From IMG/VR virus record IMGVR_UViG_2874968258_000009: 40,286 nucleotides of DNA. One strand, written 5' to 3'. Positions within the stretch are counted from its first letter, which is position 1. Every line of letters starts with the position of its first letter. Under the pieces are notes generated by a model. The model ran no database searches. It worked only from the letters and a program-made list of their open reading frames with translations, and had not been told where the DNA came from. Shown here one piece after another: positions 1 to 40,286 of this stretch. The translations under genes and the position numbers were made by a program. The DNA is from a virus (taxonomy: Monodnaviria > Loebvirae > Hofneiviricota > Faserviricetes > Tubulavirales > Inoviridae).

Positions 1-457
1 TTAAGCAGCCATCTGATGATATTTTTCCCTGAAGGCTGCCGGGGAGATATTCCCCAGACGAGAGTGACGACGCTGACGATTGTAGAAAATCTCAATGTAT
101 TCCCGTATTACTGAGATGGCTTCATCCCGGTTATTAAAACGATAGTGGCTCAGGCTCTCATTTTTCAGCGTTCCCCAGAAGCTTTCCATCGGAGCGTTGT
201 CGTAACAGTTACCTTTACGCGACATTGATGTTTTCAGACCAAACTGCTCCTGTATGACCCGGTAATCGTATGCGCAGTACTGTGAACCTCGATCAGAGTG
301 GTGGATTAGCCCGGCAGGTGGGCGCTGGCTCCTGAGCGCCATAAACAGGGCTTTACCTGTCAGCTCTTTTGTCATGCGCTCTCCCATGGCGTAGCCGACA
401 ATTTCGCACGTATAAACATCTTTGATGCCAGCGAGGTACAACCATCCCTCCTGTGTG
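1..457 (-). mobile_element. IS600-like (IS3 family) element, 3' portion, cut by window edge and fused to an IS2 fragment
   Basis: Minus-strand translation of 1-457 matches the C-terminal ~150 aa of the OrfB encoded at 3484-4302 ([24 protein letters not shown]...REKYHQMAA). Collinearity ends at 455-457 where the sequence switches to IS2-internal DNA. Confidence 0.8.
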
Positions 458-1100
458 TTTACCGGATCATGCGCCAGAATGCGCTGTTGCTTGAGCGAAA
501 ACCTGCTGTACCGCCATCGAAACGGGCACATACAGGCAGAGTGGCCGTGAAAGAAAGCAATCAGCGATGGTGCTCTGACGGGTTCGAGTTCTGCTGTGAT
601 AACGGAGAGAGACTGCGTGTCACGTTCGCGCTGGACTGCTGTGATCGTGAGGCACTGCACTGGGCGGTGACTACCGGCGGCTTCAACAGTGAAACAGTAC
701 AGGACGTCATGCTGGGAGCGGTGGAACGCCGCTTCGGCAACGATCTTCCGTCGTCTCCAGTGGAGTGGCTGACGGATAATGGTTCATGCTACCGGGCTAA
801 TGAAACACGCCAGTTCGCCCGGATGTTGGGACTTGAACCGAAGAACACGGCGGTGCGGAGTCCGGAGAGTAACGGAATAGCAGAGAGCTTCGTGAAAACG
901 ATAAAGCGTGACTACATCAGTATCATGCCCAAACCAGACGGGTTAACGGCAGCAAAGAACCTTGCAGAGGCGTTCGAGCATTATAACGAATGGCATCCGC
1001 ATAGTGCGCTGGGTTATCGCTCGCCACGGGAATATCTGCGGCAGCGGGCTTGTAATGGGTTAAGTGATAACAGATGTCTGGAAATATAGGGGCAAATCCA
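455..1100 (+). mobile_element. IS2 3' fragment (corresponds to ~nt 686-1331 of the full copy at 1867-3197)
   Basis: DNA from 455 onward is near-identical to 2552-3197 of the complete IS2 and ends with the same terminus ...ggaaatataggggcaaatcca at 1100. Confidence 0.85.
469..1089 (+). pseudogene. insD: IS2 transposase InsD, C-terminal fragment (N-terminus missing)
   Basis: 206-aa ORF is near-identical to residues ~96-301 of the InsD encoded at 2281-3186; its upstream part was replaced by IS600 sequence. Confidence 0.85.
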
Positions 1101-1957
1101 GGCAATACCATGAATCACCGGAGCGAAACCATGTTGTCTATCGGGCAACATCGCTTCTGTTGAATTTATTTTGAGGCCACGAAAGTTCACACTATCAAAA
1201 ATATCGCCATCGGTATAACTATCACCTACCGTTAACCGTGAGCGTAAGGGAATAATGTCACGTTCAGCCGACGTATTGATATGCTGCCATTTATTGCTGT
1301 CAGATGAATTGCTACTCCCACTGTTATAACTCCACGTTGAGTTATCGCGTAGTCGCCAACTACCAATGTTGATGCCACTCTGTAAATTCAAATATGCATA
1401 GTTTGATTTTCCTGCATTATGGTTACTACGATTATTAATAGAATTACCATTAAAACTATAGTTTAGAAGCCCTGCATTTATTCCTTCTTCCCACAGATCA
1501 GGAGAAACATAGCCGCGAGCCATTCTGCCAACATAAATTTGCGGAACGGAGAGTGACAGATGTTGCTGACCAACATCAAACTCAGTTGATGCGTCGGCCA
1601 AACGATCCTGAAGTGGTGTGCATGCGCTGTTGTCCGGCACATGTTTTTCTGCCGAATGTTCTTTATTGTCTAATAACGCTATTTTTTTTATACCAAGACT
1701 GACAAGAAGATCTGTACTCAGGCATGGGATGAGTTCTGCGTTATTTGAGGTAGCCTGAGTTTAACGGACACTCCTTCCTGAAATAGAATGGCATCAGAAG
1801 GAGCTAATAATGAGCAGAAAAACCCAACGTTACTCTAAAGAGTTCAAAGCCGAAGCTGTCAGAACGTAGACTGGCCCCCTGAATCTCCAGACAACCAGTA
1901 TCACTTATTTAAGTGATAGTCTTAATACTAGTTTTTAGACTAGTCATTGGAGAGCAG

Positions 1958-2323
1958 ATGATTGATGTCTTAGGACCGGAGAAACGCAGACGGCGTACCA
2001 CACAGGAAAAGATCGCAATTGTTCAGCAGAGCTTTGAACCGGGGATGACGGTCTCCCTCGTTGCCCGGCAACATGGTGTAGCAGCCAGCCAGTTATTTCT
2101 CTGGCGTAAGCAATACCAGGAAGGAAGTCTTACTGCTGTGGCCGCCGGAGAACAGGTTGTTCCTGCCTCTGAACTTGCTGCCGCCATGAAGCAGATTAAA
2201 GAACTCCAGCGCCTGCTCGGCAAGAAAACGATGGAAAATGAACTCCTCAAAGAAGCCGTTGAATATGGACGGGCAAAAAAGTGGATAGCGCACGCGCCCT
2301 TATTGCCCGGGGATGGGGAGTAA
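1958..2323 (+). CDS. insC: IS2 transposase OrfA (InsC)
   Basis: ORF with [40 protein letters not shown]...; the track ORF 1913-2323 starts at an upstream in-frame Met, and ATG 1958 is the likely start. Confidence 0.9.
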
Positions 2324-3186
2324 GCTTAGTCAGCCGTTGTCTCCGGGTGTCGCGTGCGCAGTTGCACGTCATTCTCAGACGAACCGATGACTGGATGGAT
2401 GGCCGCCACAGTCGTCACACTGATGATACGGATGTGCTTCTCCGTATACACCATGTTATCGGAGAGCTGCCCACGTATGGTTATCGTCGGGTATGGGCGC
2501 TGCTTCGCAGACAGGCAGAACTTGATGGTATGCCTGCGATCAATGCCAAACGTGTTTACCGGATCATGCGCCAGAATGCGCTGTTGCTTGAGCGAAAACC
2601 TGCTGTACCGCCATCGAAACGGGCACATACAGGCAGAGTGGCTGTGAAAGAAAGTAATCAGCGATGGTGCTCTGACGGGTTCGAGTTCCGCTGTGATAAC
2701 GGAGAAAAACTGCGAGTCACGTTCGCGCTGGACTGCTGTGACCGTGAGGCACTGCACTGGGCGGTCACTACGGGCGGCTTCAACAGTGAAACAGTACAGG
2801 ACGTCATGCTGGGAGCGGTGGAACGCCGCTTCGGCAACGAGCTTCCGGCGTCTCCAGTAGAGTGGCTGACGGATAATGGTTCATGCTACCGGGCTAATGA
2901 AACACGGCAGTTTGCCCGGATGTTGGGGCTTGAACCGAAGAGCACGGCGGTGCGGAGTCCGGAGAGTAACGGCATAGCAGAGAGCTTCGTGAAAACGATA
3001 AAGCGTGACTACATCAGTGTCATGCCCAAACCAGACGGGTTAACGGCAGCAAAGAACCTTGCAGAGGCGTTCGAGCATTATAACGAATGGCATCCGCATA
3101 GTGCACTGGGTTATCGCTCGCCACGGGAATATCTACGGCAGCAAGCCAGTAATGGGTTAAGTGATAACAGGTGTCTGGAAATATAG
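2281..3186 (+). CDS. insD: IS2 transposase OrfB (InsD), overlapping insC in a different frame
   Basis: 301-aa [37 protein letters not shown]...DDE-type integrase core ([13 protein letters not shown]...[11 protein letters not shown]). Confidence 0.9.
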
Positions 3187-3483
3187 GGGCAAATCCAGAA
3201 CGGTTCTTGAAAATCAACTTTCGATCAGTGAAGGCGCTTCCCGATTATCTCTTCCTGAAGGCACTTTAGGACAATGGGTTACCGCCGCCAGAAAAGGGCT
3301 CGGTACTCCTGGTTCCCGCACGGTGGCTGAACTGGAATCTGAAATTCTGCAACTGCGTAAGGCGTTAAATGAAGCTCGCCTTGAGCGAGATATATTAAAA
3401 AAAGCAACAGCGTATTTTGCACAGGAGTCGCTGAAAAATACGCGTTAATCGAACAATGGCGACAACAATTTCCCATTGAAGCG

Positions 3484-4302
3484 ATGTGTCAGGTATTTGG
3501 TGTATCCAGGAGCGGTTATTACAACTGGGTACAGCATGAACCCTCAGACAGAAAACAAAGTGATGAGCGGCTAAAACTGGAGATTAAGGTGGCACATATC
3601 CGCACTCGCGAAACATATGGAACCCGGCGGCTCCAGACGGAGCTGGCAGAGAATGGCATCATCGTTGGTCGTGACCGACTGGCACGTCTTCGTAAGGAGC
3701 TAAGGCTACGCTGTAAGCAGAAACGCAAGTTCAGAGCGACTACGAACTCGAACCACAATCTGCCAGTTGCGCCAAATCTGCTGAACCAGACGTTCGCTCC
3801 TACAGCACCAAATCAGGTCTGGGTGGCGGACCTGACGTATGTTGCCACACAGGAGGGATGGTTGTACCTCGCTGGCATCAAAGATGTTTATACGTGCGAA
3901 ATTGTCGGCTACGCCATGGGAGAGCGCATGACAAAAGAGCTGACAGGTAAAGCCCTGTTTATGGCGCTCAGGAGCCAGCGCCCACCTGCCGGGCTAATCC
4001 ACCACTCTGATCGAGGTTCACAGTACTGCGCATACGATTACCGGGTCATACAGGAGCAGTCTGGTCTGAAAACATCAATGTCGCGTAAAGGTAACTGTTA
4101 CGACAACGCTCCGATGGAAAGCTTCTGGGGAACGCTGAAAAATGAGAGCCTGAGCCACTATCGTTTTAATAACCGGGATGAAGCCATCTCAGTAATACGG
4201 GAATACATTGAGATTTTCTACAATCGTCAGCGTCGTCACTCTCGTCTGGGGAATATCTCCCCGGCAGCCTTCAGGGAAAAATATCATCAGATGGCTGCTT
4301 AA
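3484..4302 (+). CDS. IS600-like (IS3 family) transposase OrfB
   Basis: 272-aa ORF with an rve-type integrase core (HHSDRGSQYCA...SRKGNCYDNAPMESFWGTLK) directly downstream of orfA; likely expressed as an OrfAB frameshift fusion in an intact element. Confidence 0.85.
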   Translation: MCQVFGVSRSGYYNWVQHEPSDRKQSDERLKLEIKVAHIRTRETYGTRRLQTELAENGIIVGRDRLARLRKELRLRCKQKRKFRATTNSNHNLPVAPNLLNQTFAPTAPNQVWVADLTYVATQEGWLYLAGIKDVYTCEIVGYAMGERMTKELTGKALFMALRSQRPPAGLIHHSDRGSQYCAYDYRVIQEQSGLKTSMSRKGNCYDNAPMESFWGTLKNESLSHYRFNNRDEAISVIREYIEIFYNRQRRHSRLGNISPAAFREKYHQMAA

Positions 4303-4387
4303 AAAAAGAACAAATGGTAGTGTCCGCTATTGCCAGTACACCTCAATTATCATCTGCAATAAAAGTAATATCGGTAATGACTCCAAC

Positions 4388-4891
4388 TTATTGATAGTGT
4401 TTTATGTTCAGATAATGCCCGATGACTTTGTCATGCAGCTCCACCGATTTTGAGAACGACAGCGACTTCCGTCCCAGCCGTGCCAGGTGCTGCCTCAGAT
4501 TCAGGTTATGCCGCTCAATTCGCTGCGTATATCGCTTGCTGATTACGTGCAGCTTTCCCTTCAGGCGGGATTCATACAGCGGCCAGCCATCCGTCATCCA
4601 TATCACCACGTCAAAGGGTGACAGCAGGCTCATAAGACGCCCCAGCGTCGCCATAGTGCGTTCACCGAATACGTGCGCAACAACCGTCTTCCGGAGACTG
4701 TCATACGCGTAAAACAGCCAGCGCTGGCGCGATTTAGCCCCGACATAGCCCCACTGTTCGTCCATTTCCGCGCAGACGATGACGTCACTGCCCGGCTGTA
4801 TGCGCGAGGTTACCGACTGCGGCCTGAGTTTTTTAAGTGACGTAAAATCGTGTTGAGGCCAACGCCCATAATGCGTGCAGTTGCCCGGCAT
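4388..4891 (-). CDS. insB: IS1 InsB
   Basis: 167-aa ORF overlapping the insA 3' end, as in IS1 (InsAB' frameshift arrangement). Confidence 0.9.
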
Positions 4892-5085
4892 CCAACGCCA
4901 TTCATGGCCATATCAATGATTTTCTGGTGCGTACCGGGTTGAGAAGCGGTGTAAGTGAACTGCAGTTGCCATGTTTTACGGCAGTGAGAGCAGAGATAGC
5001 GCTGATGTCCGGCAGTGCTTTTGCCGTTACGCACCACCCCGTCAGTAGCTGAACAGGAGGGACAGCTGATAGAAACAGAAGCCAC
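4810..5085 (-). CDS. insA: IS1 InsA
   Basis: 91-aa [46 protein letters not shown]... Confidence 0.9.
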
Positions 5086-5245
5086 TGGAGCACCTCAAAA
5101 ACACCATCATACACTAAATCAGTAAGTTGGCAGCATCACCGTAATATCCCGACTAGTCATAAATTCGTCGTTCAAATAAATGTCGACCCGATATGTACCA
5201 GGTGGTGCCTCGCGTCCCTTAGTAAAGGCGGGTAATGACTCCAAC

Positions 5246-5749
5246 TTATTGATAGTGTTTTATGTTCAGATAATGCCCGATGACTTTGTCATGCAGCTCC
5301 ACCGATTTTGAGAACGACAGCGACTTCCGTCCCAGCCGTGCCAGGTGCTGCCTCAGATTCAGGTTATGCCGCTTAATTCGCTGCGTATATCGCTTGCTGA
5401 TTACGTGCAGCTTTCCCTTCAGGCGGGATTCATACAGCGGCCAGCCATCCGTCATCCATATCACCACGTCAAAGGGTGACAGCAGGCTCATAAGACGCCC
5501 CAGCGTCGCCATAGTGCGTTCACCGAATACGTGCGCAACAACCGTCTTCCGGAGACTGTCATACGCGTAAAACAGCCAGCGCTGGCGCGATTTAGCCCCG
5601 ACATAGCCCCACTGTTCGTCCATTTCCGCGCAGACGATGACGTCACTGCCCGGCTGTATGCGCGAGGTTACCGACTGCGGCCTGAGTTTTTTAAGTGACG
5701 TAAAATCGTGTTGAGGCCAACGCCCATAATGCGTGCAGTTGCCCGGCAT
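5246..5749 (-). CDS. insB: IS1 InsB
   Basis: 167 aa, one substitution (E to K) relative to the 4388-4891 copy. Confidence 0.9.
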
Positions 5750-5943
5750 CCAACGCCATTCATGGCCATATCAATGATTTTCTGGTGCGTACCGGGTTGG
5801 GAAGCGGTGTAAGTGAACTGCAGTTGCCATGTTTTACGGCAGTGAGAGCAGAGATAGCGCTGATGTCCGGCAGTGCTTTTGCCGTTACGCACCACCCCGT
5901 CAGTAGCTGAACAGGAGGGACAGCTGATAGAAACAGAAGCCAC
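5668..5943 (-). CDS. insA: IS1 InsA
   Basis: Identical to the 4810-5085 product. Confidence 0.9.
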
Positions 5944-6227
5944 TGGAGCACCTCAAAAACACCATCATACACTAAATCAGTAAGTTGGCAGCATCACCGT
6001 AAAGGCGGATAAATCGACAGATTCAGCAAGATCATTGCTTAAAAACCGTGGATTAAAATAATACTCTGCGTCAACGGGAAATACCGCAGTTGCTAAGCCA
6101 AGGGCAATGGTAAGCCGTGCAAAGCGAGGCAGTATTAACACCTGATGCATACGATATGCCTTAAATGCGGCACGAAAGGCTGTCATTATTAATTCCGATT
6201 GAGTTTATTATTAATTAGGTCACTGGC

Positions 6228-6765
6228 TTACTGCATGGTTGCCTTAATACGCGGAGTTAATGCACCGTAATCATTGATCGTCTGAAAACTGATATCCCCG
6301 GTTGCAGCATGCGGGATATCCACCGATACTTCACCTTTTGGCGGCACCATGGTGTTTGGGAGATTGCTATTTCCTGCTTTCATATTTGTTACGGTAATGA
6401 AATAGGGCGTTGGATTAATAAGAGTGAGTTTGCTACCGCTACGACGAAACCGAAGCATTGCAGGCGCTTCTTCAGGTGCCATTGCCAGGTTCGTGGGGCG
6501 ATAAAACATTTTTATGCGGCTAATAATTGCCAGCTGTAATGTATTCTCATTCTTCTGGTCTTTTTCCATAGCAGGAATAGCTTTAACATTCACCCAGAAC
6601 AGGCTTTCACGGTCGCCTGGTAACTGATGATTAGTAGCGTTGATTATCCGCAGCGTATTCCAGTGCGACAGCTGCGTTGGCAACGGTGCTATGGCAAGCA
6701 AAGAGCAATAAAAGTAACACTGTCGCCATAAAGGAAATAGAGTAGGGGGTACGCGTAGTTTGCAT
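6228..6765 (-). pseudogene. Fimbrial periplasmic chaperone (FimC/PapD family) with an internal out-of-frame deletion
   Basis: Minus-strand ATG at 6765 with a GGAGA Shine-Dalgarno opens a signal peptide (MQTTRTPYSISFMATVLLLLFACHSTVANA AVAL) that hits a stop after ~45 codons. The chaperone body (NTLRIINATNHQLPGDRESLFWVNVKAIP...NPTPYFITV...DYGALTP) continues in the +1 frame, with ~60 N-terminal domain codons missing. Confidence 0.7.
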
Positions 6766-7321
6766 CTGATGCATTCTCCATGTGTTAAGAGGATAAGCGG
6801 GAAAACCGTTACATCAGACAATCGATTAATGTTGCTAATACATTGGCGAGTCGCCGGGTTTCCAGACTTAATGCGTTTGTAATAAATGTTGGTTCTCTTT
6901 TAATAGGAAAACCTTGCTACAAAGTAAATATTTTAAATAACAGTAAGTTTAACTACTGTTGTTTATTGATAGTTTAGATATTATGTGATTTTTCATAGCG
7001 CTCCAAATACAAACCACTCCTCATTAATAATGAGATTCACATTGGTGAATTGCTCGGGTGTGCGTAGCCATGCCACACACACCCTGTTTCAATTTCAGAT
7101 GACGTATAGCCACCTTAAGATTGAATTATAGATATTGAACTTTGAAGGTCGCATCAGCGTTTGCAGTACCAGCTACGGACTGCCCGAGAGCAATATAACG
7201 AGCCTGGAATGGCAGTATATTCGTGCCACGATAACATCTTTAAATCACAAGGACACCTAATCTGAACGAATACTGAACGAATAACGACTACCAGAAAAGC
7301 ACTTCGCATCACTCAGACATG

Positions 7322-7349
7322 ATTTAACATAATATACATTATGCGCACC
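7322..7349 (-). other. dif: Chromosomal dif site (XerC/XerD recombination site) forming the left prophage junction (attL)
   Basis: Plus strand ATTTAACATAATATACATTATGCGCACC is the reverse complement of the canonical E. coli dif GGTGCGCATAA-TGTATA-TTATGTTAAAT (28/28). Confidence 0.9.
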
Positions 7350-7489
7350 AATGGTAAGGATGGCAGAATCTGGCGGGAATCGTTGACACTGGCCGTCAAC
7401 TGGCTACTATCGACAGTGATTCAAAATCATCCGTTTCTCCAAACGAATCAGAATCAAATGTCTGTCAGCAGTAAGTGAACGGCCTGACC

Positions 7490-16824: not shown

Positions 16825-16853
16825 AACATAACGAGTCGTACATTATGCGCACC
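16825..16853 (-). other. Phage attP-type XerCD site at the copy1/copy2 junction
   Basis: Minus-strand reading GGTGCGCATAA-TGTACGACTCG-TTATGTTGAAA: perfect XerC arm, divergent and longer central region, XerD-like arm 9/11. Confidence 0.6.
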
Positions 16854-26328: not shown

Positions 26329-26357
26329 AACATAACGAGTCGTACATTATGCGCACC
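26329..26357 (-). other. Phage attP-type XerCD site at the copy2/copy3 junction
   Basis: Same sequence as the 16825-16853 site. Confidence 0.6.
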
Positions 26358-38760: not shown

Positions 38761-40286
38761 ATGCAAACGAGTGATACCCGCGCGTTACCGCTACTTTGCG
38801 CCCGCTCGGTTTATAAACAGTATTCAGGGGTCAATGTCCTGAAAGGCATCGATTTTACGTTGCATCAAGGGGAGGTCCACGCCCTGCTCGGCGGCAATGG
38901 TGCCGGTAAATCGACGTTAATGAAGATTATACCCCTGCTGATAGCGGTACGCTGGAGATTGGGGGCAACAACTACGTCAGATTAACGCCAGTTCATGCTC
39001 ATCAGCTGGGTATTTATCTCGTTCCCCAGGAACCGCTGCTTTTCCCAAGCCTGTCGATAAAAGAAAACATCCTGTTTGGGCTGGCAAAAAAACAGCTCTC
39101 CATGCAGAAAATGAAGAACTTGCTGGCGGCGCTGGGCTGCTAGTTTGATCTGCATAGTCTGGCAGGATCGCTGGATGTCGCCGATCGCCAAATGGTGGAA
39201 ATCCTCCGCGGCCTGATGCGCGACTCGCGGATTCTGATCCTCGATGAACCTACCGCCTCGCTTACCCCTGCGGAAACCGAACGCTTGTTTCGTCGCTTGC
39301 AAGAGCTGCTTGCTACTGGCGTGGGTATTGTTTTTATCTCGCATAAGCTGCCGGAAATTCGCCAGATTGCCGATCGAATTAGCGTGATGCGCGACGGAAC
39401 CATCGCCTTAAGCGGCAAAACCAGCGAACTGTCTACCGATGACATTATTCAGGCCATCACGCCAGTGGTACGGGAAAAATCGCTCTCTGCCAGCCAAAAA
39501 TTATGGCTGGAGTTACCTGGCAACCGCCCACAACATGCCGCCGGAACGTCGGTGCTGACACTAGAAAATCTGACCGGCGAAGGTTTCAGGAATGTCAGCC
39601 TGACGCTCAATGCCGGAGAAATTCTGGGTCTGGCCGGGCTGGTGGGGGCCGGACGCACAGAACTGGCCGAGACGCTCTATGGTCTGCGTACTTTGCGTGG
39701 CGGACGCATTATGCTGAATGGTAAAGAGATCAATAAATTATCCACTGGAGAACGTTTACTGCGCGGTCTGGTTTATCTGCCGGAAGATCGCCAGTCATCC
39801 GGACTGAATCTCGATGCTTCGCTGGCCTGGAACGTCTGCGCCCTTACTCATAACCTTCGTGGATTCTGGGCGAAAACCGCGAAAGATAATGCCACCCTGG
39901 AACGTTATCGTCGGGCGCTGAATATTAAATTTAACCAACCGGAACAAGCTGCACGGACATTATCCGGTGGCAACCAGCAAAAAATCCTGATTGCCAAATG
40001 CCTGGAAGCTTCGCCGCAAGCATTGATTGTCGATGAGCCGACGCGCGGCGTGGATGTCTCGGCCCGTAATGATATCTACCAGCTGTTGCGCAGCATCGCC
40101 GCACAGAATGTGGCAGTGCTGCTTATCTCCTCTGATCTGGAAGAGATCGAACTGATGGCAGATCGTGTGTATGTGATGCATCAGGGCGAAATTACCCACT
40201 CTGCACTGACCGGGCGCGATATTAATGTCGAGACTATTATGCGCGTTGCCTTCGGCGATAGTCAGCGTCAGGAGGCGTCATGCTGA
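38761..40286 (+). pseudogene. lsrA: lsrA (AI-2 ABC transporter ATP-binding protein) inactivated by a frameshift (~38931) and an in-frame TAG (39141-39143)
   Basis: N-terminus [57 protein letters not shown] with Walker A, then a frame change. The downstream 364-aa ORF (39192-40286) carries the second ABC ATPase domain (LSGGNQQK signature, Walker [12 protein letters not shown]). The window ends at the stop codon. Confidence 0.8.

Follow-up and report, generated by a model that had tools for sequence, protein, structure and literature searches.

A probable F9 fimbrial operon relic next to dif in Shigella sonnei, interrupted by serial and nested insertion sequences

Introduction

Genome degradation driven by insertion sequences (IS) in Shigella involves IS1, IS2 and IS600; within S. 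sonnei the insertion sites vary between strains, and genes for surface structures become pseudogenes (Hawkey et al. 2020, PMC7373316). The type 1 (fim) and other fimbrial loci have been inactivated convergently in Shigella, leaving usher and chaperone pseudogenes made by IS and deletions (PMC12795559, PMC6854044). The F9 (yde/fml) operon, which lies between ydeP and hipBA/dif, has suffered deletions, truncations or IS insertions in 40% of the 42 E. coli genomes surveyed, and the ydeT remnant of K-12 is one of these disrupted operons (Wurpel et al. 2014, PMC3966885). E. coli F9 operons also carry independent IS2 insertions, in ydeR in KD602 and at another site, in the usher gene, in CT30.

Here we analyzed a window of 40,286 nt. 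Its left part very probably carries the 5' portion of the Shigella sonnei F9 operon for chaperone-usher fimbriae, which no longer works and is being eroded by one transposition after another and by small deletions. The same three IS types, strain-variable insertion sites and conversion of a surface structure into pseudogenes are found here as in the S. sonnei chromosomes of Hawkey et al. (2020, PMC7373316), and there is no mechanistic difference; what differs is that a single locus is followed at base resolution and that public genomes preserve several of its allelic stages. Compared with the disrupted E. coli operons, which are the same operon in the same place, the S. sonnei copy has taken far more hits, and its usher remnant records five IS events. 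In contrast to the fim cases, the operon is F9, and its inactivation is read from the sequence.

Results

Identity of the operon. In the E. coli references the gene order is ydeP-ydeQRS-usher-chaperone-major subunit-hipAB, which matches the published description of F9 (PMC3966885). The window pieces (Table 1) are collinear with reference loci L001, L002 and L005 at 99-99.8% identity. No E. coli genome held at least 80% of window positions 1-7400 in one place; high-coverage matches in E. coli RMDEC332 and plasmid EC6 came from IS of these types that happen to lie together, and not from the F9 locus. The damage extends beyond the usher gene, as each of the six structural genes is either damaged or gone and further IS debris lies to the left of the window.

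Table 1. Features of the F9 operon remnant and its insertions, in window coordinates.
Feature	Position	Strand	Details
IS600 fragment	1-457	-	457 bp; IS600 positions 1221 down to 765; window begins inside
IS2 3' fragment	458-1100	+	IS2 positions ~686/689-1331; ends at IS2 right terminus; truncates usher
Usher pseudogene piece	1101-1745	-	gene nt 286-930 (codons 96-310); 99.8% identity to intact E. coli F9 ushers
IS600, whole	1746-4345	+	1264 bp without insert; TSD ATT at 1743-1745 and 4346-4348
IS600 left part	1746-1866	+	IS600 positions 1-121; orfA start
IS2, complete	1867-3197	+	1331 bp; TSD GAACG at 1862-1866 and 3198-3202; orfA and orfB intact
IS600 right part	3198-4345	+	orfB 3484-4302 intact
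Usher piece	4346-4372	-	27 bp; gene nt 262-288; aligned to intact orthologs
IS1a	4373-5140	-	768 bp; TSD GTAATATC (8 bp) at 4365-4372 and 5141-5148
Usher piece	5141-5230	-	90 bp; gene nt 180-269; aligned to intact orthologs
IS1b	5231-5998	-	768 bp; TSD GTAAAGGCG (9 bp) at 5222-5230 and 5999-6007
Usher 5' end	5999-6186	-	ATG at 6186; gene nt 1-188; aligned to intact orthologs
Chaperone pseudogene	6228-6765	-	172-bp frameshifting internal deletion at 6660
Major-subunit gene remnant	7126-7228	-	103 bp; last 34 codons and stop codon
dif	7322-7349		chromosomal site, minus strand; borders operon remnant

The rejoined usher frame. Element boundaries and target site duplications (TSDs) were taken directly off the window sequence and then compared with the intact usher orthologs of E. 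coli ATCC 8739 (L001) and O103 ML775 (L002/L004). An earlier note on this DNA had proposed that the usher frame can be rejoined across four interruptions, each with its own TSD, and this was borne out by the alignment. Removal of IS1b, IS1a, IS600 and the nested IS2 with their duplications leaves 930 bp, the same length as in the reference and differing from it by 2 mismatches, and the result is an open frame with 0 stop codons that encodes aa 1-310 of 883 with 2 substitutions. When neighboring usher pieces are placed on the references, their ends share exactly 3, 8 and 9 bp; every duplicated target is therefore single-copy in the uninterrupted gene, which proves the TSDs. Unoccupied alleles with one target copy were found in the E. 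coli references for all four insertions, including the 8- and 9-bp IS1 targets, and in S. sonnei genomes for IS600 and the nested IS2.

Truncation at the end of a second, partial IS2, as also proposed, falls after codon 310. A functional FimD/PapC usher is a complete protein of ~830-880 aa with PapC_N, usher barrel and PapC_C domains, whereas only aa 1-310 can be rejoined here; NCBIfam usher models matched only at profile positions ~1-300, with scores below cut-offs. The usher is a pseudogene remnant in four pieces.

The insertion sequences. IS1 is 768 bp long with terminal inverted repeats of ~23 bp, carries insA/insB' and duplicates 8-9 bp of its target. Both copies here are of exactly this length, have the inverted repeats, match the IS1 transposase model and differ from each other by 2 mismatches. 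IS600 and IS2 are IS3-family elements with orfA/orfB, the former ~1.26 kb with a 3-bp target duplication and the latter ~1.33 kb with a 5-bp one. The full IS600 has the expected length once the IS2 is subtracted, shares 99.8% identity with a PGAP-annotated IS600 and matches the IS3-family transposase model. The nested IS2, inserted after codon 19 of IS600 orfA, matches the NCBIfam profiles for IS2 TnpA (275.8 bits) and TnpB (711.4 bits), both above cut-off.

Chaperone and major subunit. The independent internal deletion that had been noted in the chaperone gene is real, 172 bp and out of frame relative to intact orthologs. No major-subunit gene had been seen between the chaperone and dif; the gene is indeed nearly absent, but not entirely so, since its 3' end remains (Table 1). 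At dif, over about 7349-35845, a filamentous prophage of the UPphi type is present three times in tandem. This triple prophage is absent from the 7 complete S. sonnei chromosomes examined. Searched as nucleotides against GenBank phages, the prophage unit gave no match, and its link to I2-2 came by protein search only; no report of the UPphi-type phage group in Shigella was found in the literature searched.

Repeated elements as recombination substrates. The IS600 pair is inverted and the IS2 pair direct, as the earlier note had stated, but segment 458-1745 is not the one they bracket: the homologous brackets enclose 458-3845 for IS600 (inversion) and ~1101-3197 for IS2 (deletion). The IS600 fragment, which continues left of the window to the IS600 end in L016, is 99.8% identical to the full copy. 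It overlaps the IS2 3' fragment by 3 bp at their junction (455-457). The two IS2 copies share 96.1% identity, with 25 mismatches in 646 bp and a longest identical run of 91 bp; they are different alleles and hence poor recombination substrates. The IS2 3' fragment is closer to the E. coli KD602 copy of IS2 (99.85%). The possibility that S. sonnei has the truncating IS2 insertion in common with E. coli was rejected, as the KD602 element lies in ydeR and that of CT30 at usher codon ~510, neither at codon 310.

The pairs raise the possibility that the locus is rearranging actively, with recurrent inversion and deletion, so that the window would show only one of several isoforms. The inverted IS600 stretches match over 457 bp (501 bp with the off-window part) with only 1 mismatch and the direct IS2 homology spans 646 bp, both of which would favor such exchange; however, junctions of neither the inversion nor the IS2-IS2 deletion occur in the 7 complete S. 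sonnei chromosomes, including the 4 that carry the full IS600, and the divergence of the IS2 copies argues against the deletion. We therefore regard active rearrangement as unlikely.

Order of events. The earlier note held that the order of insertions can be reconstructed. From the window alone only IS600 before IS2 follows, whereas other S. sonnei chromosomes supply most of the order. IS1a, IS1b and the IS2 truncation are all present in 7/7 complete S. sonnei genomes. The IS600 site is empty, with a single ATT, in L014, L018 and L019, and 53G (HE616528.1) and ATCC 29930 (CP026802.1) are among such genomes. In two others (L015, L020), IS600 without IS2 occupies the same site with the same ATT duplication and a single GAACG. 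Genomes bearing the IS2 have in common a derived 11-bp duplication. This distribution suggests that IS1b, IS1a and the IS2 truncation form the oldest group, perhaps with IS1b first in it, that IS600 arrived later and that IS2 entered the IS600 last. The chaperone deletion probably came later than IS1b, because an intact chaperone adjoins IS1b in L021, in a contig that starts inside IS1b and has 0 mismatches to the window over ~1.5 kb; in the proposed order it precedes IS600.

The nesting would tell nothing of local order if a 2.6-kb IS600::IS2 composite had formed elsewhere and moved into the usher gene as one unit, with other copies of IS600 mobilizing it in trans. Since both ends of IS600 and the 3-bp TSD are retained, the composite is formally mobilizable, but the IS2-free IS600 at the identical site and the 11-bp duplication of the IS2-bearing genomes make this route very improbable. 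That the mosaic is an assembly artefact of collapsed or mis-joined IS repeats is scarcely credible: IS-rich regions are prone to errors, and the related assembly L017 shows indels of single bases along with an apparent further deletion of 841 bp without clear microhomology, but every junction here has the correct TSD, an independent complete S. sonnei chromosome (CP044151.1) is 100% identical over window 1-7348, and the intermediate alleles are consistent in six other assemblies.

Discussion

Three independent transpositions (IS1b, IS1a and IS600) went into usher gene nt 180-288 and a fourth, of IS2, into the IS600. An older IS2-associated rearrangement removed the usher past codon 310. The chaperone gene is short of 172 bp, and of the major-subunit gene only 103 bp remain. 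S. sonnei gains ~0.34 IS per year through expansion of the same five IS (Hawkey et al. 2020, PMC7373316), and its chromosomes carry ~380-440 copies (PMC12795559). This background fits, and supports, decay via successive transposition. The later insertions may have been neutral, because nothing would select against hits in an operon already dead during the ongoing IS expansion.

The three insertions within 109 bp are clustered mildly above a uniform expectation (about p = 0.04, calculated post hoc), which leaves room for some target preference. AT-richness is hardly a persuasive explanation, with a GC content of 42% at gene nt 170-300 against 42.5% over the 930 bp.

It is possible, though only tentatively proposed, that the dif-proximal relic marks recent S. 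sonnei sublineages step by step, like a barcode: gain of IS600 and loss of hipBA in either order, then the nested IS2 and the 11-bp duplication in either order, with the triple tandem UPphi-type prophage at dif as the newest step here.

The locus is an accurate but ordinary case of gene decay by IS, a process well known from Shigella. It leaves the understanding of IS elements and of fimbrial loss unchanged and has little import beyond bookkeeping. It shows cleanly, at base resolution, how a fimbrial operon of S. sonnei that is already dead is still being cut up by IS expansion, and its polymorphic IS600 and IS2 insertions could be sublineage markers.

The usher gene and its four interruptions

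The usher gene starts at 6186 on the minus strand and, read from there, is interrupted in turn by IS1b, IS1a and an IS600 that carries a nested IS2, the last inserted 3' of codon 19 of the IS600 orfA (see table). Using intact E. coli orthologs as references, including those of ATCC 8739 and O103 ML775, we rejoined the gene by taking out the four IS elements, each with a single copy of its target duplication. The rejoined usher is 930 bp, against 930 bp of the intact gene. It differs from that gene at two positions and contains no stop codon, and its product corresponds to residues 1-310 of the 883-aa usher with two substitutions. Adjoining usher pieces aligned to ATCC 8739 and O103 ML775 overlap by exactly 9, 8 and 3 bp, so each target duplication is single-copy in the uninterrupted usher. 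The earlier note's proposal that the frame can be restored across four interruptions, each with its own duplication, is thus upheld, as is its claim of truncation at a partial IS2. The gene stops at 1100/1101 against the right terminus of that IS2, which in turn meets an inverted, internally broken IS600 fragment via a 3-bp overlap.

Features of the locus and its flanks, in window coordinates
Feature	Position	Strand	Length	Target duplication	Remarks
IS600 fragment	1-457				inverted, broken
Truncating IS2	458-1100				partial
IS600	1746-4345		1264 bp without insert	ATT (3 bp)	
IS2 nested in IS600	1867-3197		1331 bp	GAACG (5 bp)	
IS1a	4373-5140		768 bp	GTAATATC (8 bp)	
IS1b	5231-5998		768 bp	GTAAAGGCG (9 bp)	
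Chaperone pseudogene	6228-6765	minus			172-bp out-of-frame deletion at 6660
Major-subunit remnant	7126-7228				last 34 codons; nothing else of gene left
Tandem duplication	7262-7283		11 bp		CTGAACGAATA
Canonical dif	7322-7349				fimbrial side of prophage array; sole canonical site
Prophage array	about 7349-35845				three copies
Hybrid dif-like sites	16826-16853, 26330-26357, 35833-35859				between copies and at right junction
Fusion ORF	36112-37830	minus	572 aa		ECSE_1600-family autotransporter remnant and HipA C-terminal domain
Third IS1	37917-38684				

IS identities are based on length, terminal repeats and NCBIfam matches (models for IS2 TnpA, IS2 TnpB and the IS1 transposase); the IS600 is so named because a PGAP-annotated IS600 is 99.8% identical to it. 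IS1a has 2 mismatches to IS1b; the third IS1, in the right flank, is identical to IS1a. The IS2 copies represent two alleles that differ at 25 sites over 646 bp. Compared with IS2 of E. coli KD602, the truncating copy is 99.85% identical and the nested copy 97.7%. Judged by sequence identity, the truncating fragment is an E. coli-type allele; the recently inserted nested IS2 may fit the separate Shigella/pINV IS2 allele group that has been reported.

Order of events from related chromosomes

In the assembly collection, 468 blocks contain a 69-aa usher::IS1b hybrid ORF. Seven complete chromosomes are included, among them HE616528.1 (S. sonnei 53G, lineage II) and CP026802.1 (S. sonnei ATCC 29930). 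53G, ATCC 29930 and L019, another S. sonnei chromosome, have both IS1 copies, the IS2 truncation and an empty IS600 site with a single ATT. Two others (L015, L020) carry IS600 at the same usher site with orfA unbroken and a single GAACG. CP044151.1 (L016) has the state of the window, and L017 resembles it with an additional 841-bp loss, possibly an artefact of an assembly with single-base indels. On a further contig, L021, IS1b lies beside a chaperone gene that is still intact. Rooted on E. coli as the outgroup, these alleles place IS1b first, followed by the chaperone deletion, IS600 and finally the nested IS2. Because 7/7 complete genomes carry both IS1a and the IS2 truncation, the alleles do not order these two relative to IS1b. 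Arrival of IS600::IS2 as one unit is excluded by the intermediate alleles.

The 11-bp tandem duplication occurs only in the window, L016 and L017, the carriers of the nested IS2, and is a sublineage marker. All IS600-bearing genomes (the window, L015, L016, L017 and L020) have lost hipB together with the N-terminus of hipA. 53G retains hipB along with a 380-aa hipA; in ATCC 29930 and L019 the 380-aa hipA is called and hipB is not.

Damage across the F9 operon

The reference gene order, ydeP-ydeQ-ydeR-ydeS-usher-chaperone-major subunit-(variable)-hipAB, identifies the locus as the F9 (yde/fml) fimbrial operon, which has six structural genes between ydeP and hipBA (Wurpel et al., PMC3966885). 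CP044151.1 is 100% identical to window 1-7348, and its adjoining DNA is 99.95% identical to 35846-40286. We took the left flank from this chromosome (reverse complement 1-5124). From the left it contains ydeQ interrupted by IS4, the final 202 bp of ydeR, a 269-bp IS2 end in inverted orientation, a truncated IS21-like element and a 5' piece of IS600 (positions 1-172) into which a second IS600 has inserted. The inverted IS600 fragment and the IS2 fragment then lead into the usher. IS debris stands in place of usher codons 311-883, ydeS and most of ydeR, all of which are lost. Damage or loss thus extends to six of six F9 structural genes.

The chaperone does carry its own internal deletion, as the earlier note had it; the junction lacks an IS and shows just 1 bp of microhomology, and the frame reaches a stop nine codons past residue 35. 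That no major-subunit gene lies toward dif was essentially right, except for the 34-codon remnant. Two more deletions, about 600 bp each relative to E. coli KD602, draw dif near this remnant. Beyond the fusion ORF, window 37917-40286 holds the third IS1, a split lsrA and lsrC; lsrK and lsrR, which in E. coli sit between the autotransporter and lsrA, are absent.

Filamentous prophages at dif

Three head-to-tail filamentous prophage copies lie between dif and hipA; a shared 13-14 bp core leaves their boundaries ambiguous by that length. The unit is 9504 bp and the copies are 99.99% identical. Besides G2P, G5P, Zot/pI, a secretin and an HTH repressor, the prophage encodes a DpnII/MboI-like nuclease as cargo. 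Its G2P and the G2P of phage I2-2 share 57.8% identity. On these sequence features the prophage fits the UPphi group, which is dif-integrating and tandem (PMC7307601), as a UPphi/Lineavirus-related type; Shigella goes unmentioned in that paper. The prophage was not found in the seven complete S. sonnei chromosomes examined, and CP044151.1 has identical flanks around an empty dif. The hybrid sites are mutually identical with 8 mismatches to dif, and one true dif with hybrid sites is the pattern expected of XerCD-mediated integration.

Mechanism and significance

The insertions are ordinary transposition events, and the IS2-fragment/IS600-fragment junction and chaperone deletion are illegitimate deletions. 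The earlier note correctly described the IS600 copies as inverted and the IS2 copies as direct. In the window the inverted IS600 copies share 457 bp with 1 mismatch, and recombination between them would invert 458-3845. The direct IS2 copies share 646 bp at 96.1% identity (longest perfect run 91 bp), and recombination between those would delete roughly 1101-3197. Neither product was found in the complete genomes examined, leaving inversion and deletion as possibilities only.

Independent IS2 insertions hit the F9 operon in two unrelated E. coli: the one in CT30 lies in the usher near codon 510, the one in KD602 in ydeR. Of 42 E. coli genomes, 40% had a disrupted F9 operon, and Shigella carries F9 too (PMC3966885). 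The 930-bp target here holds four IS junctions, where a density of 229-400 IS per 4.9 Mb would predict about 0.04-0.08 (P about 1e-7 to 1e-6). Three insertions fall inside 109 bp, a marginal clustering that base composition does not explain.

The finding of the earlier note is accurate and ordinary: the locus sequence is already public, and F9 disruption and IS-driven pseudogenes in S. sonnei are well documented. The excess of insertions likely reflects a dead gene that tolerates hits while S. sonnei keeps gaining IS, at about 0.34 per year (PMC7373316; PMC12795559).
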